Positions 656-19,155 of a stretch of DNA of 36,225 nucleotides are shown here, one piece after another. This DNA comes from Candidatus Chisholmbacteria bacterium RIFCSPLOWO2_01_FULL_49_14 (lineage in GTDB: Bacteria; Patescibacteriota; Microgenomatia; UBA1400; Chisholmbacteraceae). Made by a program: the position numbers and the translations under genes. Location of the stretch: positions 17,040 through 53,264 of the forward strand of contig MHCL01000008.1 of the NCBI GenBank assembly GCA_001816915.1, in the 5' to 3' direction. Every line of letters starts with the position of its first letter. Position 1 is the first letter of the stretch. The notes beneath the pieces are model-generated. The model did no database searches. It was given only the letters and a program-made list of their open reading frames with translations, and had not been told where the DNA came from.

Positions 656-783
656 TATTCAGTTATCAAGGTGCGCCTCGAACTTCCGAGACGCCCTTGC
701 GAAAGGGTTGGGCGTGCCGAGAGACCGGGGCACAAAAGTCTTTAAAAAACACTCCAGTTTCCTGAAGCGGGCCGATTATAGCA
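656..783 (-). promoter_or_regulatory. Extended -10 promoter, leader terminator and boxA-like motif upstream of the hydrolase gene
   Basis: Minus strand: TGcTATAAT (TATAAT at 780-775), then CGCTTCAG-GAAA-CTGGAGTG-T6 (769-744), further hairpins, and GCACCTTGATAACTGAATA (674-656). Confidence 0.55.
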
Positions 784-902
784 GAACTGGGAAGTCAGGG
801 ATGAATAGATTAGTGAATAACAGATTGCAGGTTCATATATAAGATTCAAGATTTGATGTTCGGTGTTTAATGAATACATTGAAGATAAGAAGATGCTTTT
901 TT

Positions 903-1111
903 TATTTATGCCAAGTACATGTTGTTACTTCTTTACTCACCTAAAGAAGTAACCAAGAAAGGGAGCCCTGTGAAACCCTGCCAGTGTATCTTCGCTTCGC
1001 TCGGCGGGAACCCTCGGAAATTCACCTTCGACTCGTACTCTCGCTAAGGTTCAGTTTCCGTTTCCCACTCGAGCTCATCTCGATGCACATCGGCACAGGC
1101 TTCACAACGGG
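903..1111 (+). repeat. Dispersed ~200-nt structured element, copy 1
   Basis: Perfect 12-bp stem GTTACTTCTTTA/TAAAGAAGTAAC (924-953), CAAGAAA linker, then a long imperfect hairpin CCCTGTGAA...GGAAATT...CAGTTTCCGTTTCCC...TTCACAACGGG. Same layout as 27235-27425 and 32189-32403. Confidence 0.8.
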
Positions 1112-1158
1112 GAAAGAGCTAAAAAAACAGAGATCGGGGGTAAATATGAAATATCGGA

Positions 1159-1435
1159 TGACTAATGACTACTGACTAATAACTAATGTTTAATGTTCAA
1201 GGTTTAATGTTTAAATATTAAATCTTGATTTCTAATCCCTAATTCCAAATTCCTAAACCCTGGATTCTCATTCTTCCGCTTGACACGGCCGTTATACTTT
1301 GAAAAAGTCAATGGGTGAGAATAAGAAGCAAGAAATAATGAGAAGAAAATAATGAGTAATTTAAAATCCTAAACCCTAAGCCATCTATCCTTAAACGCTA
1401 AAAAAGCTAATAACCTAATAATCTAGTCAGCTAAT
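1159..1435. repeat. Degenerate heptamer-period, strand-biased tandem repeat tracts
   Basis: Units such as GACTAAT GACTACT GACTAAT AACTAAT, GTTTAAT GTTCAAG GTTTAAT, TTCTAAT CCCTAAT TCCAAAT TCCTAAA. Confidence 0.7.
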
Positions 1436-1448
1436 ACGCTAGAATCCT

Positions 1449-3467
1449 ATGAAACTTGTCATCGTCGAAAGCCCGACCAAAGCCAGAACCCTCTCGAGAT
1501 ACTTGGGAAAGGGATATGAAATCGAAGCCAGCATGGGCCATGTCAGGGATTTGCCCCCCAGCAAGTTGGGCGTTGATGTCGAGCATGATTTTGCTCCGCT
1601 CTATGAGGTCGTTTCCGAGAAAGAAAAAATTGTCGATAAGCTTCGGTCTTTGGCAAAAAAAGCGGATGAGATTTACCTCTCCATGGACCCTGATAGGGAA
1701 GGGGAGGCAATTGCCTTTCATGTCAAACACCTGATCGGGAGAAACGGGAAGTTCAAACGGGTCGTTTTCCACCAGATCACCAAATCGGCAATTTTGGACG
1801 CGTTCACGCATCCGCGCGCGATCGATGATAATCTGGTTGACGCACAGCAAGCCCGCCGAGTTTTGGACAGACTGGTCGGATATACGCTGTCCCCGCTTCT
1901 CTGGAAAAAGGTGCGCCGGGGATTGTCAGCGGGCCGCGTCCAGTCGGTTGCCGTGCGTTTGATCGTTGAGCGCGAACGGGAAATCGAGGCCTTTAAGCCT
2001 GAAGAGTATTGGGTGATCGGCGCCGAGGTCACGAAAGCCGGTTCGCCTGAGGTATTCAGCATAGGCTTAGTGAAAATTGACGGCGAGACAGCAAAGGTGG
2101 CAGATAAAAAAACAGCCGATGCCATTGTCTCCGATCTCAAGGGCGCTGGGTATCTCGTCGTCCGGGTTGTGAGGAAGGAAGTCAAGAAAGGACCATATCC
2201 TCCGTTTACTACCTCCACCCTACAGCAGAGCGCTTCAAACGTCTTGGGTTTTACTGCCAAGCGGACCATGCGGGCGGCGCAAAACCTGTATGAGATGGGC
2301 CACATCACCTATCACCGAACCGATAGCGTTCACCTGGCCGCTGAGGCCAGAGCGTCAGCCCGATCTTACATCGAAAAAGCATATGGGAAGCAGTACCTCC
2401 CCGAGAATCCGAGGTTTTATAAGGTACGCAGCAAGTTAGCCCAGGAGGCGCATGAGGCGATTCGCCCGACCCGCGTTTCCGTCGATGCCGATTCGCTCAA
2501 GATCAAGGGGAAGGTGGTTTCTGATCTGCGGCGCCTGTATACGGTAATCCGAAAACGATTCCTTGCTTCTCAGATGAGCGATGCGGTTTATGATTCCACG
2601 ACCGTTGATGTGGAGGCGAAAGATAAAAATCCGAAATCCGAAGCACGAAATTCGAAAGTTTATCTTTTGCGGGCGAACGGAACGATCCTGAAGTTTGACG
2701 GATGGCGAACATTGTACAAACGCGACAGTGAAGATCGGGAGCTCCCGATACTTGAAGAAGGTGAGGGGCTGGATCTCAAGAATGTCCTGGCTGAACAAAA
2801 ATTTACCGAACCTTCGGCCAGATATACCGACGCAACGCTGGTCAAAGCGATGGAAGAGCGGGGAATCGGCAGGCCGTCAACCTACGCGCCGACCATCTCC
2901 ACCATTCTTGCCAGACAGTATGTTGAATATGATGAGAGAAAGTTCAAACCGACCACCGTCGGCATCGCGACCAATGACTTTTTGGTCGGTAACTTTGACC
3001 AGACGGTCGACTACGACTTCACGGCAGGCATGGAGGAGGATCTGGATAGAATCGCGCTCGGCAAAAGAAAATGGGTACCGGTTATTCGAGATTTTTGGGA
3101 GCCGTTTTTACGTAAAGCGGAGTTTGTCGAGAAAAACGCGAAGCGGGTGAAAGTGCCGACCGAGTCGACAGGGAACAAATGCCCCGTCTGCAAAGAAGGC
3201 GATGAAGTCATTCGGGTGGGCAGATTCGGAAAGTTCCTCTCCTGTTCAAGGTTTCCCGAATGTAAATATACCGCCAACTATGTCGAGAAACTCCAGGGGA
3301 TCAAATGCCCGGAGGATGGCGGTGATATCGTTATTAAAAAAACCCGCAAAGGGAAGACTTTTTTCGGTTGTTCCAATTACCCCAACTGCAAATGGGCGTC
3401 TTGGAGAGATCCGCGAGCATCCGGAAAAAAGTCAGTCGAGAAATCTGCACCACCAATCTCCGTCTAA
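1449..3467 (+). CDS. topA: DNA topoisomerase I (type IA)
   Basis: LVIVESPTK, DPDREGEAI, SAGRVQS, ITYHRTD (catalytic Tyr), QEAHEAIRPT, GIGRPSTY, C-terminal zinc ribbons. Confidence 0.98.
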   Translation: MKLVIVESPTKARTLSRYLGKGYEIEASMGHVRDLPPSKLGVDVEHDFAPLYEVVSEKEKIVDKLRSLAKKADEIYLSMDPDREGEAIAFHVKHLIGRNGKFKRVVFHQITKSAILDAFTHPRAIDDNLVDAQQARRVLDRLVGYTLSPLLWKKVRRGLSAGRVQSVAVRLIVEREREIEAFKPEEYWVIGAEVTKAGSPEVFSIGLVKIDGETAKVADKKTADAIVSDLKGAGYLVVRVVRKEVKKGPYPPFTTSTLQQSASNVLGFTAKRTMRAAQNLYEMGHITYHRTDSVHLAAEARASARSYIEKAYGKQYLPENPRFYKVRSKLAQEAHEAIRPTRVSVDADSLKIKGKVVSDLRRLYTVIRKRFLASQMSDAVYDSTTVDVEAKDKNPKSEARNSKVYLLRANGTILKFDGWRTLYKRDSEDRELPILEEGEGLDLKNVLAEQKFTEPSARYTDATLVKAMEERGIGRPSTYAPTISTILARQYVEYDERKFKPTTVGIATNDFLVGNFDQTVDYDFTAGMEEDLDRIALGKRKWVPVIRDFWEPFLRKAEFVEKNAKRVKVPTESTGNKCPVCKEGDEVIRVGRFGKFLSCSRFPECKYTANYVEKLQGIKCPEDGGDIVIKKTRKGKTFFGCSNYPNCKWASWRDPRASGKKSVEKSAPPISV

Positions 3468-3555
3468 CTCGAGAAATATTTCGTTTTCTTCGGTACGAAT
3501 TGCGATGTCTTTGCCGATTGCATCAACCCTGTTGTGTTGCTAGCATAACTGCACG

Positions 3556-5748
3556 ATGGCGATGTGGCAGGTTCGAAAACGCTCGGGAGAGACTGAAGAT
3601 TTTATTCCCCAGAAAATCACGCAATCGATTGTCAGGGCGCAGTCGAATGTCGGCGTTACCGATGCAGATCAGGCTAAGCACGTTGGATCGTTGGTTTTCT
3701 CCGACCTGCAGAAACGTTTGGCGTCGGAGCGCCTGATCGGTACGGACCAGATCGGAGATGCCGTGGAGCGGATTCTCATTGACGAGGCGCTCTATGACAT
3801 TGCCCGCGCCTACATCATTGCCAGAGAACGCCAGCGCCAGAAAACCAGGGCGGAGAAGCAATTGGGAGTTACCGATGACATTGGTCTTCCCTACAACTCG
3901 ATCGTGGTCATCCGCAACAAGTATCTCAAAAAAGACGATCAGGGGAATCCCATTGAAACGCCCAAGCAAATGTTTGCGCGGGTGGCAAAGACGCTCTCTT
4001 CTACGGAGAAAAAGCCCAAAGGTTGGGAGAGCAGATTTTTTGAGGTGATGACCTCGCTTCGCCTCCTTCCCGCCGGACGGACGCTTGCCAACGCGGGGAC
4101 GACCAATAACCAGATGGCCAACTGCTTCGTGCTGCCGATGCCGGACTCGGTCGAGGGTATTTTTGAGGTCGTTAAAGAAAGCTCGATTCTCAAGAAGAAC
4201 GGGGGGGCGGTCGGCTTCAACTTCGGCAAAATCCGTCCCAAAGGCGACGCGGTTGCCGGTACCACTGGCGAAGCCTGCGGACCCGTCGCGATCATGAAGA
4301 TCGTCAATGACGCCTCCGATATTCTATTGCAAGCGGGGGGAAGGCGAAGCGGGAACATGGTTGTCCTACCCGTATCCCACCCGGATGTGTTTGAATTCAT
4401 CACCTGCAAGGAGGATGAGTCGCTTTTACCCCATATCAATTATTCACTGGGAGTGACCTCGAAGTTTATGAACGCGGTTGAGAGAGATCTTCCGTGGGAT
4501 CTTATTAATCCGCGAAACGGAGAGGTTGTGAGCACGGTGTCGGCCCGCTCCATCTTCGAGCTTGCCTGCTCCATGGCCTGGCGGAATGGCGATCCCGGAA
4601 TGATCTTTCTGGACCGCATCAACAGGGACAATCCGACGCCCCATGTCGGGGCGCTCGAGGCCGTGAACCTCTGCGGAGAACAACCGCTTTTGCCATGGGA
4701 AGCGTGCAATTTGGGATCTCTCAATTTGGCGGCCCACCTGGTCAGCAACGGGAAGCGCAGCATCAACTGGGAGAAGCTCGAAGACTCGGTTCGCTTAGGA
4801 ATACGGATGCTTGATGACGTGATCACCGGCTGCCGTTATCCTGTCAAGAAAGTCGAGGAGACGGTCAACGCCAACCGCAAGATCGGGTTGGGGATCATGG
4901 GCTGGGCGGATATGCTGGTTAGACTTGGGATTCCTTACAACAGTGAGGAAGCGCTGAAGCTGGCGCGGCGGATGATGAGGTTCATCCGGGAGAAAGCGGA
5001 GGATGAAAGTTCCAGGCTCGGGAAGGAGAAGGGGAGTTTCCCCAACTTCAAAGGTTCTCTCTGGGAGAAACGAGGCTACAAGCAGTTCCGCAACGCGACT
5101 TTACTGACCATCGCCCCGACGGGTTCGATTTCCATGGCGGCCGGCGTCTCCTACGGCATTGAGCCGCATTTTGCCCTGGCGTTTTATAAGGAAGCGATGG
5201 GGGGCATTCAGTTGCCGGAAGTCAATGCCGATCTTCTTGAGGCACTGCGGGACGCCGGGATTGAGGAGAATGGTCTTCTTGATGAGATTGCGCAAACCGG
5301 AACGATCCAGCAGATGAGCCAAATCCCGGAGCGGATCCGCAAGGTCTTCGTCACGGCGCACGATCTTACCCCTCAAGATCATGTCCTCACCCAAGCGGCA
5401 TTCCAGAAATACACCGATAACGCGGTTTCCAAGACCATCAATATGGCGCATGACGCGCGGGTCGAAGATATCCAGGATGCGTTCATGCTGGCCTGGAAAA
5501 CGGGATGCAAGGGGATCACCGCCTACCGGGACCTCAGCAGAAAAGTGCAAGTACTCAATGTCGGGAAACATTCAACAGCCACAAGTCACAAGTCACAAGC
5601 TACAAATAAGAGAGATAATAAGATTTCCCTACAAGCTAATAAGCTAACAAGCTCTTTTTCGGAGTGTCCGCAGTGCGGGGCGACCATGCAGTTTGTGGAA
5701 GGCTGCGCGACCTGCCCGTCATGCGCTTTTTCAGTCTGTTCGCTGTAA
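3556..5748 (+). CDS. nrdJ: Adenosylcobalamin-dependent (class II) ribonucleotide reductase with N-terminal ATP cone and C-terminal Zn ribbon
   Basis: ATP cone VRKRSG..EDF; ANCFVL; GGRRSGNM; NLCGEQPL finger loop; TIAPTGSIS; SKTIN; C-terminal CPQCG...EGCATCPSCAFSVC. No nrdB nearby and no C-terminal YY motif (TAYR instead). Confidence 0.9.
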   Translation: MAMWQVRKRSGETEDFIPQKITQSIVRAQSNVGVTDADQAKHVGSLVFSDLQKRLASERLIGTDQIGDAVERILIDEALYDIARAYIIARERQRQKTRAEKQLGVTDDIGLPYNSIVVIRNKYLKKDDQGNPIETPKQMFARVAKTLSSTEKKPKGWESRFFEVMTSLRLLPAGRTLANAGTTNNQMANCFVLPMPDSVEGIFEVVKESSILKKNGGAVGFNFGKIRPKGDAVAGTTGEACGPVAIMKIVNDASDILLQAGGRRSGNMVVLPVSHPDVFEFITCKEDESLLPHINYSLGVTSKFMNAVERDLPWDLINPRNGEVVSTVSARSIFELACSMAWRNGDPGMIFLDRINRDNPTPHVGALEAVNLCGEQPLLPWEACNLGSLNLAAHLVSNGKRSINWEKLEDSVRLGIRMLDDVITGCRYPVKKVEETVNANRKIGLGIMGWADMLVRLGIPYNSEEALKLARRMMRFIREKAEDESSRLGKEKGSFPNFKGSLWEKRGYKQFRNATLLTIAPTGSISMAAGVSYGIEPHFALAFYKEAMGGIQLPEVNADLLEALRDAGIEENGLLDEIAQTGTIQQMSQIPERIRKVFVTAHDLTPQDHVLTQAAFQKYTDNAVSKTINMAHDARVEDIQDAFMLAWKTGCKGITAYRDLSRKVQVLNVGKHSTATSHKSQATNKRDNKISLQANKLTSSFSECPQCGATMQFVEGCATCPSCAFSVCSL

Positions 5749-5977
5749 GCTCTGTAGGTTACGGATTATTGACAGCTCGAGCTGAAGTGGGTAGCAGACG
5801 TTGGCAGGCGGGCCTGCCCTTCCTGCGCATTCTCCATTTGTAGTTTATAGCTTCCTCAAGAAGTTCTTTTTGAAGGATAGATTTTTTTTGATTGGAATAA
5901 AAACTTATCACTTGGCTGTGTTTTTGATCTGATGTTGGGGTAGTTTGGAAAATTGACCGACGTGTTACTATTCTGTT

Positions 5978-6562
5978 ATGAGAGATTTTAAAGAAGGCAA
6001 AGTAGTCCTTCCTATTACGAAGGATCGATATGGATGGGTAATATCAGAACCAAGTTTCGATCTATCGATTATCCAGGATCATGAGATGAACTTGAGAGTT
6101 GCTCGGGAACGAGGCATAGATCCTCTGAGTTTTTCAGATATCAGCCAGCAACTGGGTGAGGGTTGGAATATTTGGGTGTTATTTGATACCGTTTTGAGAG
6201 CTTTTCGTGGCAATTACTGGCGAGTACTGGAAATTGATCGTAAGCAGGAAGAAGTGGAACTTCAATTCTGCGGAAGGTTTGGGATTTCCGACTACAAGGG
6301 TATTGAGCCGTTTCGGCTTTCAGTTCACGAGCCGTTTTTTACTGGTGTGACTGTACAAAAGTTTGTCGATGATAAGTCAGGTGAGCCGGTTTCGCTTACG
6401 GAGTTTCATGTGAGAAAAGGGGGAAGGGAACCAATGGATGTTCTCCAGGAACTTAAATGTTCGGAAGAGATTTACTGGTCTCAAGGAGCCGGTCCTTATT
6501 TTGGCCTCTTAAATTTCAAGTATATCGAACCTCAGAGAGGTAGAATTCCTTCTTCCGGATAG
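5978..6562 (+). CDS. Hypothetical protein (194 aa)
   Basis: Long ORF filling the gap; extended -10 TGtTACTAT 6 nt before the ATG (leaderless-type). Confidence 0.7.
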   Translation: MRDFKEGKVVLPITKDRYGWVISEPSFDLSIIQDHEMNLRVARERGIDPLSFSDISQQLGEGWNIWVLFDTVLRAFRGNYWRVLEIDRKQEEVELQFCGRFGISDYKGIEPFRLSVHEPFFTGVTVQKFVDDKSGEPVSLTEFHVRKGGREPMDVLQELKCSEEIYWSQGAGPYFGLLNFKYIEPQRGRIPSSG

Positions 6563-6616
6563 AACATTTCAAATATTGCTTATCTAATAATAGAAATCAA
6601 ATTTCTACTCAAAGTT

Positions 6617-7295: not shown

Positions 7296-7328
7296 AAAAC
7301 CATATTACCGTAAAGCTGTAAGAATTGT

Positions 7329-8372: not shown

Positions 8373-8451
8373 AGAAGCGTTGCTCTTGGGTTACGCTTCA
8401 TTTGGATTTTCCTCTTGTTTTTTTTCACTGTCCTATGCTACCTTCAGTGCG

Positions 8452-10023
8452 ATGAACATACGGGCTCGCGGTTGGCCGCTTTTCTACAAAGATATCCTTC
8501 TGGTGAAGGATCCTCAGCATCACGTCGGCGTCTGTTGTTTGTGGACGGAACGGCAAGTCGTCGCCAAGCTTATCGAGGGCAGCAACTACAACCTCATCGG
8601 CAACCTCTACAGCGCGCAGGGCATCAATGCCATGATGCGCAATATCTTTGCCAATCCCGTCATCAGGACTATCGTGCTCTGGGGCGCGGAGATGAGCCTT
8701 TCCGGTCACTCGTTCCTCATGTTCATGAAGGAGGGGATTGATAAGGACCGCAAAATCATCAACGGACGGGGAGAGGTGGAGAAAGAGATCGGCAATCGGG
8801 CAATTGAACTTTTCAGAAAAAATGTTGACGTCGTGGATCTGCGCGGAAGGGATCGGGAGGCTTTGGTCAGAGTGTTGAAGGAATTGGGGCAGAAAAAACC
8901 GAAACCGTTCACGAAGAAACCGAGGGTCTTTGCGAAGGCAGAGCCGACGATTTCCGTATTTCCCAGCCAGAAAGTGGGATTTCGCGTCTCTTCTCCCAAA
9001 GTCGCCAAAACCTGGGTCAAGCTTCTCAATGAGATTTACAAATACGGATTACCCAAGCACACGCGCTACAGCAAAGACAATGAGATCCGCGAGATCCTCA
9101 ATCTCACGGCCGTGGTGACCGATGAGGATCCCAAGGATATTTATTTTCCCGAGTATCTGCCGTTCGGAAGGACCGAGCTTGAGGCATATTACGCGGAACT
9201 CATGACCGACCGCAAGATCCCGGGAGTTGCCTACAATTACGGCAGGCGCCTGCGCAAGGAGCTCGGTGTGGATCAGATTGCCAAGATGAAAGAACTCATA
9301 AAAAAACGGCCGGCTTCCAAGAAAATGGCGGCGTTTACGGTCAATGTCAGGAAAGACTGGGGGGAAGTCAATCGCGGAGACACTCCGTGCCTGATGCAGG
9401 TTTTGGGAAGCATCTACGATAACCGCTTCTACATGACGGCACATTTCCGCAGTCAGGACATGGTGCACGGTTGGCCTCGGAACGCCTTTGCGCTACGAAA
9501 ACTTCAAAAAGATATTGCCGATAGTACCGGTTATTCCATGGGTCCGCTCACGATTATTACTCACAGCGCGCACATCTATGGAGATGATTTTTTGCTGGTT
9601 GAAAATCTTCTCATGGATCATTACGAGCAAGAATTGGGATTCTCGCCTGCCGTTCATTTTACCTTTGATCCGCGCGGCAATGTGGTGATTGAAATTATCC
9701 GTGAGAAGGATGCACTGCAATTTCATGAATACTCCAAACGTTATGAAAAGGGAGCAGTTCCTTTTGCCGTCTCACAAACGCTGAAGCGGCTGCCCAAGCG
9801 GGGGAGAAATTCCGGCAGGCTCATCCGAGCGACGCTGTTTGCTCCCGACGGGGGAGCGCCCCTTAAAGTGTTTGAGGGCAGGACGGCGCAGGAGGTTGCC
9901 TATCAAATTGCCGATTGGGGATATCTCACGGATCCCGCGCACGCGATGTATGTCGGCCAGGAACTGCAGAGGGTCGAGGAAGCTCTGATTCACGGAGGAG
10001 GGTACCATCAGGATCCGGCGTAA
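8452..10023 (+). CDS. thyA: Thymidylate synthase (archaeal-like ThyA) fused to an N-terminal MtrA-like domain and a C-terminal DUF4346-like domain
   Basis: TS motifs TPCL, FRSQD..GWP.N, SAHIY. N-terminal VGVCCLWT...GNLYS.GI....N..ANP.IR is MtrA-like. C-terminal DPRGN...HAMYVGQEL...YHQD. Start moved to ATG 8452 because TGcTACCTT lies 7 nt upstream. Confidence 0.8.
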   Translation: MNIRARGWPLFYKDILLVKDPQHHVGVCCLWTERQVVAKLIEGSNYNLIGNLYSAQGINAMMRNIFANPVIRTIVLWGAEMSLSGHSFLMFMKEGIDKDRKIINGRGEVEKEIGNRAIELFRKNVDVVDLRGRDREALVRVLKELGQKKPKPFTKKPRVFAKAEPTISVFPSQKVGFRVSSPKVAKTWVKLLNEIYKYGLPKHTRYSKDNEIREILNLTAVVTDEDPKDIYFPEYLPFGRTELEAYYAELMTDRKIPGVAYNYGRRLRKELGVDQIAKMKELIKKRPASKKMAAFTVNVRKDWGEVNRGDTPCLMQVLGSIYDNRFYMTAHFRSQDMVHGWPRNAFALRKLQKDIADSTGYSMGPLTIITHSAHIYGDDFLLVENLLMDHYEQELGFSPAVHFTFDPRGNVVIEIIREKDALQFHEYSKRYEKGAVPFAVSQTLKRLPKRGRNSGRLIRATLFAPDGGAPLKVFEGRTAQEVAYQIADWGYLTDPAHAMYVGQELQRVEEALIHGGGYHQDPA

Positions 10024-10135
10024 GATAGCAGATAGAAATAAGAAAGACAGTTGATAGAGACATAGATAGAAAGTGGATAGACAGAAGTAAGATCAAATAG
10101 TGAATAGCAGATGGCAGATGGATGAGGTGAATACT
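10024..10135 (+). repeat. Purine-rich GATAG(A) repeat tract
   Basis: GATAGCAGATAG...ACAGTTGATAGAGACATAGATAGAAAGTGGATAGACAG; its core is shared with 34614-34767. Confidence 0.75.
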
Positions 10136-10137
10136 AT

Positions 10138-10200
10138 TTGACAGATGGGATGTTATAGGATACAATATCGCAATTCCTGGACTTTTAATCCGGGATTTTT
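10138..10200 (+). promoter_or_regulatory. Consensus sigma70 promoter followed by a leader hairpin and U-tract
   Basis: TTGACA(10138)-17-TACAAT(10161); TCCTGGA/TCCGGGA stem (10175-10195) followed by T5. Confidence 0.6.
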
Positions 10201-10212
10201 AGAAGAGGATTT

Positions 10213-10824
10213 ATGACTGGAGAGGTTCCGAGTCAGTTTGATCAGACTGAAGCATCTCGAGAAAAACTTCAAGGCAATCTTGAACAGCTTCCTGGTCCTG
10301 TTCGCTATCTTTATGAACGAGTTCGCGGACTTGTTACGCAGAACGAGCCTGGATACGATGCGTACGAAGTCAATGTCGAGCGCTTTTCTGGACTGTTAGC
10401 AGAGAAAGGGGTTTACCTTATCGGAGCCCCTCTCGAATCCGTTGTCGTTTATGCTCGGGTGGAAAATTACGCAGACTTTCCTGATGTATCCGTGGCTATC
10501 CATCGACAGGGCGAAGAATCGCTTGGCGGAATAGTGGCGCTTTCAACCCATGGACTCGTCGCCGATTTATCAATGGATTTTAAGAAAGCTGTGTATATAC
10601 AGAAGGGGGAGAATCAGAGACTTAACCAAGCGCAACTCACGGCGCTTGCATTCACAGAAGCTTTGTTGGATTCACTTAGAGATGCGAAGGGTAAGAGGCT
10701 CATTCGACGTCAACAAGAAAAGATGCAACCGCGTTTTATTATTCCAGTATATTTTATGGAACATACGCGTCCTCAATATCTGACGGGATTTATCGGAAAG
10801 GAGGATGTTCCTTGGGGAGAGTAA
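10213..10824 (+). CDS. Hypothetical protein (203 aa)
   Basis: SD-like GAGGA, own promoter, long ORF. Confidence 0.72.
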   Translation: MTGEVPSQFDQTEASREKLQGNLEQLPGPVRYLYERVRGLVTQNEPGYDAYEVNVERFSGLLAEKGVYLIGAPLESVVVYARVENYADFPDVSVAIHRQGEESLGGIVALSTHGLVADLSMDFKKAVYIQKGENQRLNQAQLTALAFTEALLDSLRDAKGKRLIRRQQEKMQPRFIIPVYFMEHTRPQYLTGFIGKEDVPWGE

Positions 10825-10827
10825 TCT

Positions 10828-11745: not shown

Positions 11746-11802
11746 GCTCGCATATCAAATTGCTCGGTCTAGAAAGCAGGCTTCTCCATTAGGAGGTTTT
11801 TT

Positions 11803-13026
11803 ATGGCTACACGAGGTAACGAGCTTCCATCTAATTCAGAATATGGCCCCCTGGCATATATCGTTCCTCGTATCGTACCCTCCGAAGGAATGGAACTTCC
11901 CGAGAAGAATAGGACTCTGACATCACCATCTACCGAGTTTGAAGTCCATATCATAGAGGATGTTCCCGGAGTGTCGCAGAGCGTTTCCCAGTTTTACCCG
12001 GAGTTTGAAGGAGTATTTCCTGACTCATTGGTTCTCAAGATTTGCGGAACACTAGCAAATGAGTTCTTCATCAATGGTGGTGAAATCGGGCAGGAGAGTA
12101 TTCGGAGAGAGACGTCGGTGGCACTGAGAGATCAGAGAGTTCCCATCGTCTTGGGTCTGGGATGGGTTAAGCGTGAGGAGGGTGGTCGGATGGCGCTCTT
12201 TCCTCAGCCCGCTGACGGCCGAGAGGCGGCGATGGTTATGTGTAATTACGTTGATGAGACAGCGTTCGGGGCGGTTGTGGAGGCTCCACTTTCTTCCGCT
12301 GAAAGACGAGAGATCATGGAGCAATCGGTGAAGCGGATGCTGGCGCTGAAGGTCCCGATGTCTGCAGAAGATGCGAGATCGTTTGATCCGGTCGTTGGCA
12401 CGCGGGCACTCATAGGTGAGACTCTTGATCGTGCCTTTAACTGGCGTCGGGAGCAGTGGGGCGTTGATCCATCGCAGGAAGCGAAAGAAGCACACCGTAT
12501 CTTCAAAGTGGCGTTTAGCGAGTGGATTGAAGATTCTGATACTCGGCAATTTCTCCAACTCGAGAATGAGAGAGGGGCGTTTGGTGATCAACACGGGGAT
12601 CCGAGGTTGTTTGACAACGCGAGTATCGTGCGACGATCGAACGGTTCGCCTGTAACGATCATTCGAGATCCGGTCCGGCTTTTCTTGCGGGACCGGCAGG
12701 ATTGGTCGAACTTTCATCTTTGTCATGATCTTTTACAGCTAGGATGTCTTTTAGCGCGGCCGTTCACTGATCCCAAGCATCGGGACCTCTTTCGATATGG
12801 ATTCGAGGCGTATGAGCGAATGTCGCGTGCCTCCAGCTCCAACATCCTAGGAGATCAAATGCGAGAAAAGCTTTTTGGGATCGGACTCGCGTACGGGCCG
12901 CAGGTTGAAATCGTCGTGCGTGGCTATGTAAACGATGAGGGAGCGGGACCGGTTATCGATGACTACTGGCGGATTGATCGATGGCTTTCAGAGAGCAATT
13001 TTCTCGGATGGAAGGAGGAGCTCTGA
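11803..13026 (+). CDS. APH/protein-kinase-like phosphotransferase
   Basis: VLK, a helix-C-like Glu (RRE), HGDPRLFDN catalytic loop, IIRD, then ...HDLLQLG as in APH-like proteins; SD AGGAGG. Confidence 0.6.
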   Translation: MATRGNELPSNSEYGPLAYIVPRIVPSEGMELPEKNRTLTSPSTEFEVHIIEDVPGVSQSVSQFYPEFEGVFPDSLVLKICGTLANEFFINGGEIGQESIRRETSVALRDQRVPIVLGLGWVKREEGGRMALFPQPADGREAAMVMCNYVDETAFGAVVEAPLSSAERREIMEQSVKRMLALKVPMSAEDARSFDPVVGTRALIGETLDRAFNWRREQWGVDPSQEAKEAHRIFKVAFSEWIEDSDTRQFLQLENERGAFGDQHGDPRLFDNASIVRRSNGSPVTIIRDPVRLFLRDRQDWSNFHLCHDLLQLGCLLARPFTDPKHRDLFRYGFEAYERMSRASSSNILGDQMREKLFGIGLAYGPQVEIVVRGYVNDEGAGPVIDDYWRIDRWLSESNFLGWKEEL

Positions 13027-13778
13027 TTCCGATTTTTATCGCAACCGGCCATTCAGGGAGCGGCAAGTCCACTCTTCTCAGTGTGGCGAGGGAGGCGTAT
13101 CAGAACTACGGGTTGTTTCCTGAAACGATAACGGACAGAAATCTTCTCTCCCAAGCCGTTGCCGAGGACATGATGCGCGGGTTTTCCGAGGTCGAAGTTT
13201 CACCTGGGAAGCAGGCACGAGTCAGTGAGCATGCGATCCTTTATCGGGATCACGATGAGCCCGGTTTGCGGGTGTTTACGGTTCGGGATGGGGTGCTCCT
13301 GAACGACGTCCACCGGAGGATGCGCGACATAATCTGCGACAATCCGAATGAGCAGGGACTCGTGATCGAGTGGACGACCGGACCGAATGTCGAGGTATTC
13401 CCTGTATTACCGACCGGTGGGGAAGGGCTCTACCAAGATGCGGAAAGCTTCCTTCGGTTGTTTTCCGAGCGTAGCCTCGACGAAGACCGGCGCGTCTTGG
13501 TGATTGCCGTGAATGCGGATCTTGAGTTTCGGGTGGCACGGAATCTCAGGCGCCCGGACCCGATGGAACCTAGTGACTTTGCCAGGATCTTCCGCGACGG
13601 AGGAGAACTGCGAGCTGCACACCTGCAACAATTTTCGGAAAGGTTTGTTTTTAAGGAATACAGCAACAATTACGACAACGAGAGGCGTTTTTTTCGAGAA
13701 ATGAATCATCTGTGCGGCAGAGAACTTTCCAGTCTGATTGAAGGAAATCGGCCGAATCCCGAGCGACGGGATGGATAA
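13008..13778 (+). CDS. P-loop nucleoside/nucleotide kinase-like protein
   Basis: IATGHSGSGKST Walker A and lid-like RVARNLRR. Overlaps the APH-like gene. Start uncertain (12981 or 13008). Confidence 0.7.
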   Translation: MEGGALIPIFIATGHSGSGKSTLLSVAREAYQNYGLFPETITDRNLLSQAVAEDMMRGFSEVEVSPGKQARVSEHAILYRDHDEPGLRVFTVRDGVLLNDVHRRMRDIICDNPNEQGLVIEWTTGPNVEVFPVLPTGGEGLYQDAESFLRLFSERSLDEDRRVLVIAVNADLEFRVARNLRRPDPMEPSDFARIFRDGGELRAAHLQQFSERFVFKEYSNNYDNERRFFREMNHLCGRELSSLIEGNRPNPERRDG

Positions 13779-13836
13779 ACAAATACCCACAAACGGCTCT
13801 TGCTACGTTCTCAACCACTTGGTATTCTGACTCTCA

Positions 13837-14751
13837 ATGAAACGGGTGAAAGTGGTTTTAGATTTTGACGGGACGCTGACCGATGAGGCTCGTCAGGCCC
13901 GGGAACTCAAAGGAATCGCCCAACGCATGCTTGCCGAGAAGATCCTGAAGGTTCCCCTCAAAGATGTCAAACGCCGCTATAATCGGGTCCGCAAGGCGAT
14001 TCTTTCCTCTCCTCACAAGTATCATTGGTCTGTCAATGGTTTGAAGGCGACCTACGCCCACGAAGGAGCGTACCTCCTTAATACCTCGATTTTGCAGGAG
14101 GTCATGCGATCAGACCTCAACTATCTTCGTGCTGTTATGCGAAAATTTCCGCCAAATGCGCTTGATTCCGTCACCTTGGCTTCCAACCATTTGTTCCATC
14201 GCGGGACCATTCAGGTTGATCCCCATTTCTTGAAGGGTGCGGAAGAACTTCTTGTCGAGATTATCAAACATCCGACGATCGATCCTGTGATCCTCACCAA
14301 TTCTGAAACCAAAAAGATCGAGAAGAATCTGAAAGCACTGAAAATCGGCAGGAAGGGAACGCGCAACCGTTTCGCATACGAGATTGAGATTTTGGGAGAT
14401 ACCCGTCAATATCACATGGACCCGGATTGGGAACAGCATTTTGAGCACCATCGTTACGGTTCGACGCAGATCCTGCCGGTCAACGAGCAATTCTCCATCG
14501 ACCTGCGGCGTCCGGTCTACCACGCGGTATTGAAGCAAATCCTTGAGGAGGGATTTGATGAAGTCGTCGTGGTTGCCGACGGGTTGTCGCTGGCCGGAGC
14601 GTTGCCGCTCGTCATGGGACTTACTTTTGTCCTCAAGAAGACAGGCTTCACGCCGGAGTGGTGTGAAACATGCGTCCGGGAGCACCCAAACGGACGGGTT
14701 GTCAATGATCTTGCGGAGCTCAAGGAATATCTTTTCGGATTGGTTGCCTGA
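13837..14751 (+). CDS. HAD-superfamily hydrolase
   Basis: Motif I VLDFDGTL, motif II ILTNS, VVVADG as a motif-IV-like segment. Confidence 0.75.
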   Translation: MKRVKVVLDFDGTLTDEARQARELKGIAQRMLAEKILKVPLKDVKRRYNRVRKAILSSPHKYHWSVNGLKATYAHEGAYLLNTSILQEVMRSDLNYLRAVMRKFPPNALDSVTLASNHLFHRGTIQVDPHFLKGAEELLVEIIKHPTIDPVILTNSETKKIEKNLKALKIGRKGTRNRFAYEIEILGDTRQYHMDPDWEQHFEHHRYGSTQILPVNEQFSIDLRRPVYHAVLKQILEEGFDEVVVVADGLSLAGALPLVMGLTFVLKKTGFTPEWCETCVREHPNGRVVNDLAELKEYLFGLVA

Positions 14752-14805
14752 TATGATCCGCCCTTGCGGAAAGCCGAGGATAGTTTTCAGTCCGGGAGTT
14801 TAATC

Positions 14806-15462
14806 ATGCATATTCCTTCTTGGTTACCCAGTATTCGTGCCTTGGGTTGGGATTTGGACGGGACCTTGTACCCGCCTTCACAGACGCTAACTAAACTGAT
14901 CCAGAAACGCCAATATCAGGCTGTCTCAGAAAAAATGCGTTGGAGCCTTCAGAGGACGCGAAGCGAGTACGAAAAACGATATCTGAATCTCGGGAGCAAT
15001 ACGAAAACGATATCTTCATTTGGTATCGACGGGATTTCATTCTTCACCTCGGCTTGGGATACGATTGACCTGTCGGTATTCATCCACAGAGATGAGCGGA
15101 TGGTACACATGTTTGATTCGCTGGCTTCAAGAAGGCATTTTCTTATTTCCAACAGCAATCGGCTTGATCAAATTCAGAAGAAACTTCTTCTTATCGGTCT
15201 TCAAGCGGAGATCTTTGAGGTGATCGTACCGACTGAAGAACTGGGTGAAGTCAAACCGGACCCCGCCCCGTTCCTCTTCGCGCTTGAGAAACTCCGGCTC
15301 CCGCCCGAGCAGACGCTGTTTATCGGTGATCGGGTATCGACGGATGTGATGGGGGCAAGTGCAGTTGGGATGCGCACCTGCCGGATTGGGGAGACGACGC
15401 CAAGCGCGGATATCTGTATTCCGTCTGTCTACGATATACTCTTGATATTTTCCGACCGGTAA
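14806..15462 (+). CDS. HAD-superfamily hydrolase (nucleotidase-like, subfamily IA)
   Basis: WDLDGTLY, ISNS, KPDP, FIGDRVSTDVMGA. ATG at 14806 preferred over TTG at 14764. Confidence 0.85.
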   Translation: MHIPSWLPSIRALGWDLDGTLYPPSQTLTKLIQKRQYQAVSEKMRWSLQRTRSEYEKRYLNLGSNTKTISSFGIDGISFFTSAWDTIDLSVFIHRDERMVHMFDSLASRRHFLISNSNRLDQIQKKLLLIGLQAEIFEVIVPTEELGEVKPDPAPFLFALEKLRLPPEQTLFIGDRVSTDVMGASAVGMRTCRIGETTPSADICIPSVYDILLIFSDR

Positions 15463-15507
15463 CAGCAATTGACACTTGCACGGATCACGCTGGAAAGTTT
15501 AGGATAA

Positions 15508-16602
15508 ATGACGATGAAGGTTTACTTCGGCGCCTCCATTACCCCCTCGCGGAACATGCTCCCACTCTATCAACTGGTTGTCTCCGAAATAAAACGGCAG
15601 GGACATACCGTGCTCTCCGAGCACGTCGTCGATCCCAACCTCAAGACGACGGGGAAGCTTAATGCCCGCAAGATTTTTGCAGAGGAAGTTGAGAAAATCC
15701 GGCGCTCAAACGCGATGGTCGCCGAAGTGACCGAACCGTCGTGGGGGACCGCATTTCTCATGGAAGAAGCGCTCGAACAGGGGAAGCCAGTTCTGGCGCT
15801 CTATTTTGAGGAGAGTGAAACGCCTTTACCGCTGATGATTCAAGGCCACCCGGAATTGTATGTGGCGCACTACAGCAAAGACGATGTGAAGACGGTTCTC
15901 AAACACCATTTTGAACATTTTTCCCAGTCAAACGGCAGACGGGGAAAGCTCATTGTCTTGGACGGGGCGGATGGCTCGGGAAAATCAACACAGACAAGCC
16001 TCCTTTTAGACTACCTGAAGAAGAAGGGAATCGATCACACCTATATTTCTTTTCCCCGTTACTACACCTCCTTCCACGGCAGGCATGCCGGGAGATTCCT
16101 GATGGGTGAGTTCGGCGGAAACAACGAGGTGAGCCCATACCTGTCATCTTTGGCGTTCGCGCTGGACCGACTGACGGCACGTGATGAGATCGTCGATTGG
16201 CTCAAAGAGGGGAAAATCGTGGTTGCCGACCGCTACGTTTCAGCGAGTTTGGCCCATCAATCATCAAAACTCCCCCTCGTAAAACGCAAAGCCTTTGTTG
16301 AGTGGCTCTATAACATGGAGTACAAGGAGCATCGCTTGCCGAAAGAAGACGTGGTGATTTATCTTCATGTGCCGGCTGCGATCGCTCAGAAACTCTTGAT
16401 CAAAGAGATGAGAAGGCGGGATGAGGCGGATGTTGATATCGAGCATCAAAAGCGGACGATCGCGATGTATAAAAAACTCGTGCGCAAATACAAGCACTGG
16501 GTGATGATTTCCTGCGTCGACGCGAAAGGCAAACTTTTTTCAAGAGAGGCGATCCAGAAAAAAATTCTTGCAGTCTTGCGGGAACGCAAGATTGTTCCCT
16601 GA
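15508..16602 (+). CDS. tmk: Fusion of a DNPH1/Rcl-like (NDT-fold) N-terminal domain and thymidylate kinase
   Basis: N-terminal KVYFGASI...VLSEHV...VAEVTEPS.G...KPVLAL...MIQG; C-terminal LIVLDGADGSGKSTQ, FPRY, FALDR, DRY. Confidence 0.82.
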   Translation: MTMKVYFGASITPSRNMLPLYQLVVSEIKRQGHTVLSEHVVDPNLKTTGKLNARKIFAEEVEKIRRSNAMVAEVTEPSWGTAFLMEEALEQGKPVLALYFEESETPLPLMIQGHPELYVAHYSKDDVKTVLKHHFEHFSQSNGRRGKLIVLDGADGSGKSTQTSLLLDYLKKKGIDHTYISFPRYYTSFHGRHAGRFLMGEFGGNNEVSPYLSSLAFALDRLTARDEIVDWLKEGKIVVADRYVSASLAHQSSKLPLVKRKAFVEWLYNMEYKEHRLPKEDVVIYLHVPAAIAQKLLIKEMRRRDEADVDIEHQKRTIAMYKKLVRKYKHWVMISCVDAKGKLFSREAIQKKILAVLRERKIVP

Positions 16603-16621
16603 GCAAGGCTTGAACCGGCGG

Positions 16622-16704
16622 TTGACACAACCGGGATTGGGATGTAGCGTAAAATCCCAGAGCATTTCGACAGGCTCAATGCAAGCCGAAACTCTGGTTT
16701 TTTT
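16622..16704 (+). promoter_or_regulatory. Promoter plus leader terminator-like hairpin with an inserted palindromic unit
   Basis: TTGACA-17-TAGCGT; CCAGAG(16657)...CTCTGG(16697)-T7 ending 6 nt before ATG 16711. May also terminate the tmk transcript. Confidence 0.5.
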
Positions 16705-16710
16705 CTGGCT

Positions 16711-17142
16711 ATGCTGAATCACGAAACACTACGACGAGACCTTAGTGAAATCGGATTTTCCGACCCGTATAAGCAGAGTTCAAGACACGATGCCGTCTGG
16801 ATGTTCATTGACGGGGCGGTGGAGCGGGGAGGGGTGATCGATCCCGTTATACTGGCGCAAGAGATCGGGTGTGCCTCAAACATCGTCTTTGACTATCTGA
16901 CAGCACATCCGTTGACGGAAAGTTTCCAGGCAGGTAACGGACAACATAAATTCTGCTCACTGTTGCCTCCACCAAAACCCACAGAAGAAGGGTTAACGGA
17001 ATTACAGAAACAGAAACTGCTGTTATCCGAAGATCCGTTGGGGGCTGAAGCAAGGCTGGAGTATTACCGTGACGTCGAGGAGCGGACGCTCAGGTTGAAG
17101 CATTTGAGGAAATCCCGGAAACGGCTGGTTCGACGATTTTAG
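16711..17142 (+). CDS. Hypothetical protein (143 aa)
   Basis: ORF with its own promoter; possible helix-turn-helix-like segment LAQEIGCASNIV. Confidence 0.65.
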   Translation: MLNHETLRRDLSEIGFSDPYKQSSRHDAVWMFIDGAVERGGVIDPVILAQEIGCASNIVFDYLTAHPLTESFQAGNGQHKFCSLLPPPKPTEEGLTELQKQKLLLSEDPLGAEARLEYYRDVEERTLRLKHLRKSRKRLVRRF

Positions 17143-17195
17143 ACAATATGACTTTTTCTCTGAAGTCTAGTTGTAGGAATACAAAAAGAAGTACC

Positions 17196-17232
17196 AAAAA
17201 CCCGAGAATCATCAGGAAATTCTCTCGGTTTT
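17196..17232. terminator. Imperfect hairpin flanked by A/T tracts
   Basis: AAAACCCGAGAAT...ATTCTCTCGGTTTT downstream of 16711-17142. Confidence 0.4.
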
Positions 17233-17271
17233 AGAAAACGCAATATTATTTATAATGGGGGATGATCATCT

Positions 17272-17478
17272 ATGACTATTTCTCAAGAGATAGAGAACAA
17301 TGGGGAGGTATGGACCCCCACAAGCAAAAAAGCCAATCCGCATCCAAATATGGAAGCCGGCGAACGTGTGATTCGGGTGTGGGGAGAGTTCTATGAGAGT
17401 TTGCCAGAGGAGAACAAACAGAGATTTCGGGATCAATGGGAAGTAAATCAAGAGACATCAGTTCGAGATGGTTTATAG
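17272..17478 (+). CDS. Small hypothetical protein (68 aa)
   Basis: TATAAT and GGGGGA upstream; plausible composition. Confidence 0.5.
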   Translation: MTISQEIENNGEVWTPTSKKANPHPNMEAGERVIRVWGEFYESLPEENKQRFRDQWEVNQETSVRDGL

Positions 17479-17524
17479 CCGATAGATGATAGTCGAGAAA
17501 GTTATTGATAGAATTCTTTTATCC

Positions 17525-17751
17525 TTGACTAATGTGTATCTTATGTGTATAATTCTCTGAAAAGTGGATCGAGATTTTGATTGAAAGAGCCCACTTTTTG
17601 AACGAAGAAACGATATCTCGAACAGCACTCGGGAGGAAACCAAGATTCAGAAGGTGGGTTTTTTGCAATCTTGATCACTATGAGGAACACGATTAACGAT
17701 ATCAAGAAATACCGAAGAACTTGAGGGAGCGCGCGTCACGGCGCGCTTTTT
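17525..17751 (+). promoter_or_regulatory. Promoter and ~200-nt structured leader with a 14-aa uORF and an intrinsic terminator
   Basis: TTGACT-17-TATAAT; uORF 17680-17724; AGCGCGC-GTCACG-GCGCGCT-TTTT (17728-17751) immediately before ATG 17757. Confidence 0.6.
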
Positions 17752-17756
17752 GTACC

Positions 17757-18611
17757 ATGTCGCCAGACATCGACAAAACCGGACTAGGAATCGAAAGTCG
17801 CGAATCCTATCTTGAACTTCCACCTCCTCTTTTGCAGGACAAAAAGAGTGTATGGGTTGCGACAAAGAATGAACGGAAACTTGACGCAGCCAGAGGTCTT
17901 TTTCAGCGATATCCAGTATTATTCGGCACCGAGTTTCTCGTTCCTCAACCTCATGAGCTCACGGGAACAGAACCAGACGACAAGGAAGCAATTCAGATAT
18001 CTAGGAGTAAAGTGGAGAATGTTGTTGCACAGCTTGAGGGAAGGCCCGGTCCAAAGACGCTTGTGATGGGCAGTGATATCGTTGTTTGGTTTGACGGGAA
18101 GCCGTATCAAAACCTCTCTCGGCTCGAGACTCTGACCAGCAATATTTTGTGGAAGGAAGTGAATCACCTGCAGGATGTTTTTTCCGGGGAGGTGGAGGTG
18201 ATGTGGGATGTCGCGACTTCCGTATCAACTTGCGAAGTCAGGGCGACAGTCGCCGACCGGCACGTGGCACATTTTCGTCCGATTCCCGCGGATGCGATCT
18301 ACTGGGCGTGGGAAAAGGACAAAGACGGATTCAAAAAGAGAAATTCGCGCATTCAACTTCTTGATGATTTTCAAGACTATGTTATTGACATCGGGACAAT
18401 TCCTTTCAACTGCATCGCTGATCGAGAGGGAGAGTTCTTAACTCAACAGGAGTGGGTTAAGGCCAGGCCAGTCCCGGAGGAAATGAAGCGAGACTATATG
18501 CAGGAAGTGTTGACTCAGGTTATTGGAGGCCTGCCGGTCAATGGAAGACTTGACAATCTTTTATCGGTGAAACCTTCAGCCAAATGCCAGAGAGGGTGGA
18601 TGCTTGTCTAA
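17757..18611 (+). CDS. Divergent Maf/Ham1 (ITPase-fold) nucleotide pyrophosphatase-like protein
   Basis: VWVATKNERK (Ham1-like), SRSK, VMGSDIVVWFDGK (Maf-like). Confidence 0.6.
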   Translation: MSPDIDKTGLGIESRESYLELPPPLLQDKKSVWVATKNERKLDAARGLFQRYPVLFGTEFLVPQPHELTGTEPDDKEAIQISRSKVENVVAQLEGRPGPKTLVMGSDIVVWFDGKPYQNLSRLETLTSNILWKEVNHLQDVFSGEVEVMWDVATSVSTCEVRATVADRHVAHFRPIPADAIYWAWEKDKDGFKKRNSRIQLLDDFQDYVIDIGTIPFNCIADREGEFLTQQEWVKARPVPEEMKRDYMQEVLTQVIGGLPVNGRLDNLLSVKPSAKCQRGWMLV

Positions 18612-18758
18612 GAATCTCGCCGACGTTTAAACAGATTTGTTTTTAACTTCGATCAACCATTTGCATTATTTTTCCCATTTGTGTAGAATAATCGGACATT
18701 GAATTGACAAGCGCCTTTTTATAATAGCGGAGGTGCTTTTTTATCGGAGATATCGCAA

Positions 18759-19052
18759 ATGATGCAAGAAATTGAGGTTCTACCATCCAGCGATTATCCA
18801 GAGGCTGGAAATAACGGAAATCTGGTTCTTCCTTTCTTTAAGGAAATTATCGAAAGGATACATCATGTAATTCATCGAATCGGCGGTGATGGAGTTGGTG
18901 AACAGGCAAATAGCACACAAGGAAAGATAGTCAACTATAATCCCGATGACTATTTGGAACATGGCCAGATTGTTGATCCAACAACGGTTCATGTTCCTCA
19001 CGTTGAGCGTATAGAGGAACCAATCCTCAGCTCGCAGCAAATTGAGGCTTGA
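18759..19052 (+). CDS. Hypothetical protein (97 aa)
   Basis: Promoter TTGCAT(18661)-17-TAGAAT, leader hairpin, SD GGAG. Confidence 0.55.
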   Translation: MMQEIEVLPSSDYPEAGNNGNLVLPFFKEIIERIHHVIHRIGGDGVGEQANSTQGKIVNYNPDDYLEHGQIVDPTTVHVPHVERIEEPILSSQQIEA

Positions 19053-19155
19053 CATTGCTTCATCCCATTTTCTATATTTTCTTCTATAGTAAGGGCTTAA
19101 AAAAAGCCCTCTTTTGCATAACGCTGCGGAGGGCAAAGCCCTTTTTTTATTTTTT
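19049..19155 (+). promoter_or_regulatory. Promoter and 1:2 / 2:3 / 3:4 attenuator-like leader
   Basis: TTGACA-18-TATATT; AGGGCTT / AAGCCCTC / GAGGGC / GCCCT followed by a long T tract. Confidence 0.6.

Follow-up and report, generated by a model that had tools for sequence, protein, structure and literature searches.

Promoter-proximal hairpin–U-tract elements as candidate intrinsic attenuators in a Chisholmbacteria lineage

In Bacillus, 5'-proximal stem-loops of the aprE and ermC type are known as mRNA stabilisers, and processive antitermination is established for lambda Q at pR'-tR', for RfaH at ops, for LoaP leaders and for the put/EAR RNAs. Very few recognisable regulators are encoded by the Patescibacteria (candidate phyla radiation, CPR), and gene control in this group is almost unstudied. 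Here, we analysed a stretch of 36,225 nt from Candidatus Chisholmbacteria bacterium RIFCSPLOWO2_01_FULL_49_14 (contig MHCL01000008.1, positions 17,040 to 53,264; in the following "the window", with positions counted from its first letter), in which an earlier note had pointed out a promoter followed by a hairpin and a U-tract ahead of at least six genes and had proposed an antitermination-controlled regulon of accessory genes. In abstracts of the literature, premature termination in 5' untranslated regions (UTRs) is described for E. coli, Bacillus, Borrelia and others on the basis of Term-seq mapping. The "actuatons" of Synechocystis combine a promoter with a terminated small RNA (sRNA) which, via read-through, doubles as 5' UTR of the adjoining gene (PMC5386190). 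Titles and abstracts revealed no paper on a promoter–hairpin–U layout in Patescibacteria.

The layout of promoter, hairpin and U-tract is real, selected and lineage-specific. In the assembly containing the window (GCA_001816915.1, hereafter G000; 1.21 Mb, 29 contigs, 90% complete, about 49% GC), a strict scan for hairpins followed by a T-run (hairpin-T elements) yielded 252 elements, 97 of them intergenic; a permissive first scan had given no intergenic enrichment, and the strict criteria were adopted instead. The elements reach an intergenic density of 0.209 per kb-strand vs. 0.062 on the sense and 0.096 on the antisense strand of coding DNA, and sigma-70-type matches at 10 or more of 12 consensus positions (referred to as strong promoters; 9/12 served as second threshold) are 6–7 times denser intergenically (196 intergenic vs. 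127 in coding DNA). A strong promoter is located within 150 nt upstream of 18 of the 97 intergenic elements, and in 13 cases its −10 ends 7–31 nt before the stem. When each element was repositioned randomly inside its own intergenic region (300 permutations), the expectation for the 2–35-nt upstream window was 2.64 ± 1.48 with a maximum of 7, and none of the permutations reached 13. Within 150 nt downstream, no element had a strong promoter (0/97 vs. 2.3 and 4.0 expected in two downstream windows), and for the window of 36–150 nt only 3/300 permutations were as low as this zero. At the threshold of 9/12, 21 modules were observed vs. 6.98 expected, and none of the strong-promoter hairpins starts 5' of the predicted +1.

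Hairpins of any kind are not enriched after promoters (37/191, 19%, vs. 27/184, 15%, and 99/596, 17%, in the controls). Those with at least four T in the next 6 nt account for 12 of these 37 vs. 2/27 and 6/99 in the controls; the enrichment is thus limited to hairpins with a T-run, and the U-tract is therefore part of the selected feature. The relatives G001 (780 kb, 41% GC) and G002 (800 kb, 50% GC) of the same family and G005 (800 kb) of another family were run through the same pipeline. In G002, tight promoter–hairpin spacing was found for 8/58 elements vs. 1.71 expected, a value reached by none of 300 permutations, and the tight layout is thus common to two genera (G000 and G002). A leader preference of hairpin-T elements was observed in all four genomes, though numbers are small and the genomes related.

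Within the window itself, raw counts are inconspicuous: promoter-like sites (23 vs. 16.9 ± 3.5 in shuffles) and terminator-like sites (24 vs. 21.4 ± 6.0) are not in excess, and counts in its second half are likewise not above shuffles. The non-random feature is order and spacing, as tested genome-wide. All six hairpins with U-tract named in the earlier note are present and have stable folds, ranging from −8.6 to −16.1 kcal/mol (z from −1.9 to −3.1), with 5–7 T directly 3' of the stem, the additional element at 11783 being a weak exception (−5.3 kcal/mol). The near-consensus promoters described alongside were recovered at three sites (10138, 17525 and 19049; 11/12); those at 18660 and on the minus strand are weaker, the hexamers before 16711 lie 22 nt apart, and no promoter was found upstream of the 11803 gene, as the note had held. 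The elements are as follows, with Shine-Dalgarno abbreviated as SD.

775–805 (−): promoter of leader 1, extended −10 TGCTATAAT (783–775), weak −35 TTCATC (805–800), 19-nt spacer
744–769 (−): hairpin of leader 1, CGCTTCAGG..CTGGAGTG at 769–750, −10.9 kcal/mol, then T6; starts 6 nt past the −10
10138–10166 (+): promoter, TTGACA-17-TACAAT, 11/12
10175–10200 (+): hairpin, TCCTGGA/TCCGGGA at 10175–10195, −9.3 kcal/mol, T5; starts 9 nt past the −10
10204–10209 (+): SD AGAGGA of the gene starting with ATG at 10213
11783–11802 (+): weak hairpin at 11783–11796, −5.3 kcal/mol, with the SD (GGAGG) as 3' arm and a T6 spacer; ATG at 11803
16622–16655 (+): promoter-like hexamers TTGACA and TAAAAT, 22 nt apart, non-canonical
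16657–16704 (+): hairpin, CCAGAG..CTCTGG with a structured 29-nt top, 16657–16697, −15.4 kcal/mol, T7
16711 (+): ATG gene start without SD
17525–17553 (+): promoter, TTGACT-17-TATAAT, 11/12, TGTG just before
From 17559 (+): hairpin A, AAAAGUGG/CCCACUUUU, then U5, at the predicted 5' end, −9.8 kcal/mol, z −3.1
17587–17661 (+): hairpin B, long, then U6, −26.6 kcal/mol, z −3.96
17726–17751 (+): hairpin, GCGCGCG..CGCGCGC at 17726–17747, −16.1 kcal/mol, T5, 5 nt 5' of ATG 17757; GAGGG adjoins the 5' side of the stem
18660–18689 (+): weaker promoter, TTTGCA-18-TAGAAT, 9/12
18709–18742 (+): hairpin, AAGCGCCT../..AGGTGCTT at 18709–18738, −11.2 kcal/mol, T6; SD GGAG, ATG at 18759
19049–19078 (+): promoter, TTGACA-18-TATATT, 11/12; overlaps with the stop codon of the preceding open reading frame (ORF)
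19092–19116 (+): first hairpin, AGGGCTT-A5-AAGCCCT at 19092–19110, −10.1 kcal/mol, then CTTTTG; 15 nt past the −10
19128–19155 (+): second hairpin, GGAGGGC/GCCCTTT at 19128–19144, −8.6 kcal/mol, T7AT6

The design at 11783, with the SD in a hairpin arm, recurs in G000 at C16:70304 and C28:11555 (contig:position). The ORF at 18759–19052 is doubtful as a gene (coding score −1.6), and no homologue was found in the three relatives G001–G003. The phosphoribosyltransferase (PRTase) gene behind the last two hairpins has two possible starts, an SD-led one at 19208 and a TTG at 19166. By reading, an alternative pairing (19104–19134) could form between the 5' arm of the 19128 hairpin and the 3' arm of the 19092 hairpin.

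By sequence, the elements are GC-rich stem-loops followed by a U-tract, as in intrinsic terminators, and are located between the predicted transcription start and the start codon, which is the position of attenuators. Per kb-strand, hairpin-T elements of G000 occur at 0.249 in convergent, 0.215 in divergent, 0.322 in co-directional sense and 0.095 in co-directional antisense contexts. Divergent vs. convergent regions contain 15 vs. 14 elements in G000, 11 vs. 5 in G002, 9 vs. 1 in G001 and 7 vs. 2 in G005. Co-directional contexts hold 51 of the 97 elements, and 31 of these 51 are closer to the next start than to the previous stop (count from table). Sorted by context and promoter, 36 elements are leader-type, 16 are 3'-type and 45 are unclassified. 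Leader-type and 3'-type elements do not differ in ΔG, stem length, number of GC pairs, loop or T content, the sole difference being a shorter uninterrupted T-run in the former (3.9 vs. 4.9, p = 0.045); as judged from these features, the predicted leader elements are indistinguishable from the few 3'-end terminators of the genome. Divergent occurrence, the promoter directly upstream and cross-genus conservation support that the window elements represent leader elements and not merely ends of upstream genes. The earlier observation that many genes appear leaderless is supported: among 180 strong intergenic promoters, 37 have a −10 ending 5–14 nt before a start codon, which predicts leaderless mRNAs to be common.

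For five of the six window sites, a conserved counterpart exists in another genus; in several of these, stem and U-tract persist, and the differences concern the loop or even the genes on either side. At site 769, one-sided changes in G002, from G.U to A-U or G-C, preserve the stem pairing, and T6 as well as the −10 including its TG are kept. At site 10175, the syntenic counterpart in G002 (L300 14795–14870) features a conserved promoter, a stem kept with two one-sided changes, a replaced loop and a preserved T-tract, while both flanking genes show no detectable homology between the two genomes. The counterpart of site 16657 in G003 has a regular promoter (TTGACT-17-TAGACT) before a 46%-identical homologue, with the stem CCAGAGC/GCTCTGG 7 nt past the promoter, a shorter loop, a T-run and the ATG. 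For site 19092, promoter plus first hairpin match G001 and G003 at about 78% identity across 115 nt, whereas the PRTases downstream share just 18–27% of their residues; G002 retains this hairpin with another promoter sequence in front. Across the four genera of the family, the hairpin shows no or hardly any sequence change. Of the 19128 hairpin, G001 has a weaker form and G002 and G003 have none, and no counterpart of site 18709 was found in the relatives. Outside the window, the element at C6:11387 shares promoter and early leader with G002 and shows a compensatory double change from C-G to U-A in its stem, with T-run and immediately adjoining ATG kept.

A blastn-short comparison of all leader modules with three relatives was discarded, as random intergenic controls matched equally often (69/297) and known conserved leaders were not recovered. 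The pattern AGGGCTT..AAGCCCT proved too unspecific in genome contigs, where it matched at least 120 unrelated terminators across bacteria; among the matches listed, the PRTase leader was present in a single record (L030), and the combined promoter–leader pattern gave no match in the metagenome scan.

Two sites differ from the short modules by long structured leaders. On the minus strand, 157 nt (587–743) lie between the hairpin–U element and the ATG at 586, which is preceded by the SD GGAG, and this region folds with a minimum free energy of −69.4 kcal/mol (z −3.03). Over the 138 nt from 649 to 786, identity with G002 amounts to 77%, and G003 shares an identical 24-nt block. The region 586–786 (−) represents a candidate structured leader RNA of about 190 nt, which has no match in Rfam. 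The 202-aa gene downstream, previously labelled a hydrolase, has no Pfam or NCBIfam match, which leaves the label unsupported.

The second leader (17556–17756, about 200 nt) precedes the 17757 gene and comprises three hairpin–U elements and an invariant core, GGGAGGAAACCAAGATTC; the promoter at 17525 is located about 175 nt 5' of the 17728 hairpin, with the two further elements A and B in between. These overlap via a common segment, CCCACUUUUU, and would be mutually exclusive in the front part of the leader (17559–17664). The leader was found solely in G000, in G002 (L003 1286–1540) and in two metagenome contigs (L284, L285), and ATGTGTATAAT at the promoter is identical in G002. The stem of the 17726 hairpin is invariant and its loop variable among four distinct sequences, and the apical part of the first hairpin varies freely; since three of the four aligned sequences are near-identical, no useful covariation is available. 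Across 286 genomes of the order, the 18-nt core occurs exactly in G000 and G002 only; matches with two mismatches turned out to be coding sequence on inspection, and a reversed control pattern gave about 8 matches. By eye, a possible ATT-started mini-frame of 8–9 codons extends from behind the core into the second U-tract in both genera. Rfam gave no match for this leader, and the 17757 protein has a weak Atlas lead to Maf-type nucleoside triphosphate (NTP) pyrophosphatases (0.89). Given the nucleotide-metabolism island around this gene, NTP sensing would be an attractive idea. In their predicted folds, both leaders look like classical sensor-bearing attenuators.

Among the available readings, we favour promoter-proximal, mostly sensor-less intrinsic attenuators together with the two longer structured leaders, a reading which we adopt tentatively and with not quite half of our confidence. 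Attenuation is ranked first because the elements carry all sequence features of intrinsic terminators and because only the terminator-like subclass of hairpins is enriched. The conserved promoter–hairpin–U layout probably throttles or gates transcription. In the putative module, a sigma-70-type promoter would be followed by a GC-rich hairpin with U-tract and then by an SD and/or start codon within about 0–40 nt, the hairpin beginning 0–25 nt past the predicted transcription start or closing a longer structured leader. A fraction of the polymerases would stop after 30–70 nt, and the remaining ones would read through and give rise to an mRNA with a 5' stem-loop. Hairpins beginning right at the predicted +1 (10175, 769) leave no space for an antiterminator or sensor. 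As the short modules have no room for a cis sensor, and as neither a shared motif nor a dedicated antiterminator gene was found, their read-through would most likely be either constitutive, fixing the output of strong promoters, or dependent on global or kinetic variables, e.g., NTP pools, polymerase speed, NusA or NusG. The 5' hairpin probably also protects the read-through mRNA in this organism, in which RNase J and RNase Y are present and RNase E was not detected, and such a stabilising role may well coexist with attenuation.

Several points weigh against this reading. Tight spacing is not significant in G001 (4/45 vs. 2.0; reached by 35/300 permutations) or in G005 (3/43 vs. 2.1), the latter having 7 promoters 36–150 nt upstream vs. 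3.75 expected. At both long-leader sites, long conserved leader RNA follows 3' of the first hairpin–U, and read-through should therefore be common at those two sites. NusA was not found in the 90%-complete G000 (N-domain undetected), while it is present in 20/20 relatives. Its gene lies about 4 kb from that of HrcA in G001, G002 and G003, and both were not found in G000; this adjacency makes a single unassembled piece the likely reason for the missing nusA and hrcA. Genes were called by a purpose-written dicodon log-odds model (1114 genes, 81% of the genome coding), which overlooks low-scoring small ORFs, and these home-made calls render some context classes and distances noisy. Finally, the element before groES may be a DNA operator instead, as it is an AT-rich palindrome adjoining a CIRCE-like half-site. 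This leader (C26:67660–67830, L125; L287–L291) features TAAAATAGCACTC followed by GTTATCA-N5-TGATAAC in four genera; in G002 the palindrome lacks a T-run, the repeat of G005 is more CIRCE-like, and HrcA is present in 3/3 family relatives. The groES case is better read as an operator.

The best placed of the alternatives, which we nevertheless consider rather doubtful, is a 5' module for mRNA stability and translation, in which the hairpin would block RNase J and the U-rich stretch would serve as an unstructured ribosome landing site with little termination in vivo. The organism possesses RNase J and RNase Y, and RNase E/G was not found. About 5 of the 13 strong modules start at most 5 nt from the predicted +1, the start codon follows within 40 nt of the hairpin end for 10 of 14 well-scoring ORFs, several of them without SD, and groES as well as the conserved leader RNA 3' of the first hairpin at two sites would fit such a role. 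In contrast, hairpins lacking a U-tract are not enriched after promoters, the features of the elements equal those of 3'-end terminators, and 8/13 hairpins start 8–24 nt from the predicted 5' end, a distance too large for protection as judged from the 5' stabilisers of Bacillus.

We regard it as unlikely that the modules are autonomous cassettes, conserved independently of their neighbours (10138–10200 vs. G002), which would act as position-dependent valves: polymerases arriving from upstream and loaded with NusA/NusG would stop, and fresh ones would pass depending on NTP level or elongation speed. If true, such valves would tie scattered genes, including a nucleotide-salvage island with the Maf-like enzyme and the PRTase, to nucleotide supply without a specific regulator in a regulator-poor episymbiont.

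Still less probable is a dedicated processive antiterminator, i.e., a NusG paralogue, a Q-like protein or an RNA element, that would switch on a silent accessory regulon jointly. Strong complete terminators are located directly behind strong promoters, and tandem leader terminators (17559/17587/17726, 19092/19128 and, elsewhere in G000, C16:70332/70304) would be best explained by a processive mechanism. Against this stands the lack of a factor: NusG is single-copy in 4/4 family genomes including G000, which also has one Rho; the families Phage_antitermQ and CAT_RBD gave 0/4 each in the same family genomes (G000 being 90% complete), and no cold-shock domain was detected in G000. A shared motif is missing as well, since among 36 leaders, compared by k-mers and by eye, only T-tract words exceed shuffles. 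Of the regulon reading put forward in the earlier note, the conserved leader elements with a promoter upstream are thus retained, and the common factor, the common motif and the accessory character of the genes are not.

The latter point follows from the genes themselves. Of 13 hairpin-led proteins tested, 7 have a Pfam match at E ≤ 1e-4 (GroES, an FN3 surface protein, an M23 peptidase, a PIG-L deacetylase, a NucS/DUF5655 protein, a sortase and a PilT-like ATPase), compared to 19/37 in the leaderless set, with matches that include Tyr/Trp-tRNA and His-tRNA synthetases, RF1, RRF, Lon, PilB and ComEC. Coding-score density does not differ between the sets (p = 0.13, 0.24), so that hairpin-led genes are not specially accessory, and envelope and surface functions are conspicuous among them. 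The PilT-like module is doubtful, as its leader in G000 lies inside a TTTAGAA tandem repeat and the orthologues in G001 and G005 are found in operons without leader. As a separate observation, near-identical promoter cassettes (TTGACAT..TGCTAAT..TATGGTATAGTAC) occur at C4:5343–5400, C10:2128–2185 and C3:107176–107230 (minus) of G000; one of them precedes an FN3 surface protein, and a 13-nt box, TACGACGAATTAA, is found in two of the three before different leader hairpins.

With equally low probability, the elements are ordinary terminators or insulators of the upstream unit, the promoters before them being coincidental or for other use. The large share of elements between co-directional genes (51/97) and the retention of the 10138–10200 module in G002 despite a different downstream gene could point in this direction. 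Moreover, a reverse, fused order (hairpin-T, a −10 within 35 nt and the start codon 5–12 nt further on) exists for 5/97 elements in G000 and was found at none of the window sites. However, the elements in divergent regions of all four genomes have no upstream gene to end, 31/51 co-directional elements are nearer to the downstream start, promoter adjacency exceeds the permutation expectation by far, and at 10138–10200 the upstream gene differs in G002, too. DNA operators, i.e., inverted repeats just past the −10 that bind dimeric repressors, are highly improbable as a general explanation in spite of their classical position and the groES palindrome with HrcA in the relatives, as the stems differ at each locus and would call for many regulators in a 1.2-Mb genome, are GC-rich with T-runs directly after, and show a compensatory change in one orthologous pair.

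The DNA runs containing the window are groundwater and soil metagenomes. Its first 20 kb form a nucleotide-metabolism island encoding topoisomerase I, a class I/II-type ribonucleotide reductase, a ThyX-like fusion, a HAD phosphatase, a deoxyribosyltransferase–thymidylate kinase fusion and the divergent PRTase, with interspersed ORFs that have no Pfam or NCBIfam match; the second half encodes SHMT, FolD, S2, EF-Ts, RRF, an RseP-like protein, ProRS and others. Both fusions are unusual: at 8380–10023, a thymidylate-synthase-like region is joined to MtrA-like and pterin-binding DUF4346 domains, and at 15508–16602, a nucleoside 2-deoxyribosyltransferase to a thymidylate kinase/dNK. The PRTase (19208–19903) is a divergent type-I member with an N-terminal part of about 110 aa belonging to no known family. 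Its weak NCBIfam matches comprise XPRT and APRT, but also the regulators PurR and GfcR, and the protein could be an enzyme or a regulator sensing phosphoribosyl pyrophosphate.

Intergenic DNA 5' of promoters is full of degenerate short-period tandem repeats, mostly of 7 nt (in the window at 1158–1261, 1407–1436, 10024–10135, 26579–26633, 29138–29160, 34607–34784 and 35337–35433), some of them strongly purine-rich on one strand (GATAGA-like). The region 770–1448 (680 nt), between the divergent minus-strand gene and topA, consists largely of such repeats and contains no convincing ORF and no Rfam match. Similar repeats are found elsewhere in G000, e.g., TTTAGAA around position 4000 of C25, and a further repeat family (..GAAGTACGACGTATGAAT.. 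followed by CATGATTCAT repeats) is present in C10 (two copies), C14 and C16 (two copies).

Considering that roughly half of the canonical terminator-like elements in this family are located in predicted leaders right after promoters, with conservation across genera, premature termination may be a main lever of expression there. In addition, our analysis brought to light two conserved structured leaders without Rfam family. In comparison with known systems, the window shares with 5'-proximal stabilisers of Bacillus the hairpin near the 5' end in an organism featuring RNase J and RNase Y, but here the enrichment is specific to the adjoining U-tract, and many hairpins do not lie at the very 5' end. 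As in processive antitermination, complete terminators, one or several, stand between a strong promoter and the genes, whereas no factor gene and no common recruitment motif (ops, nut/boxA, QBE or put-like) was found here. Attenuators and riboswitch platforms resemble the present case in the intrinsic terminator between promoter and start codon and in predicted overlapping alternative pairings (at 17559–17664 and possibly 19092–19144). They differ in that most hairpins here start 0–25 nt past the predicted +1, where no preceding sensor or antiterminator is possible, and in that no Rfam family matches; unlike textbook riboswitch or leader-peptide attenuation, the short modules would therefore respond to global variables or act constitutively. 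The predicted short RNAs of about 30–70 nt comprise little beyond the terminator hairpin, in contrast to the actuatons of Synechocystis. With these, the modules share a promoter and a predicted short terminated RNA directly upstream of a gene without promoter of its own, and, as exemplified by 10138–10200, a cassette that is conserved while its cargo differs.

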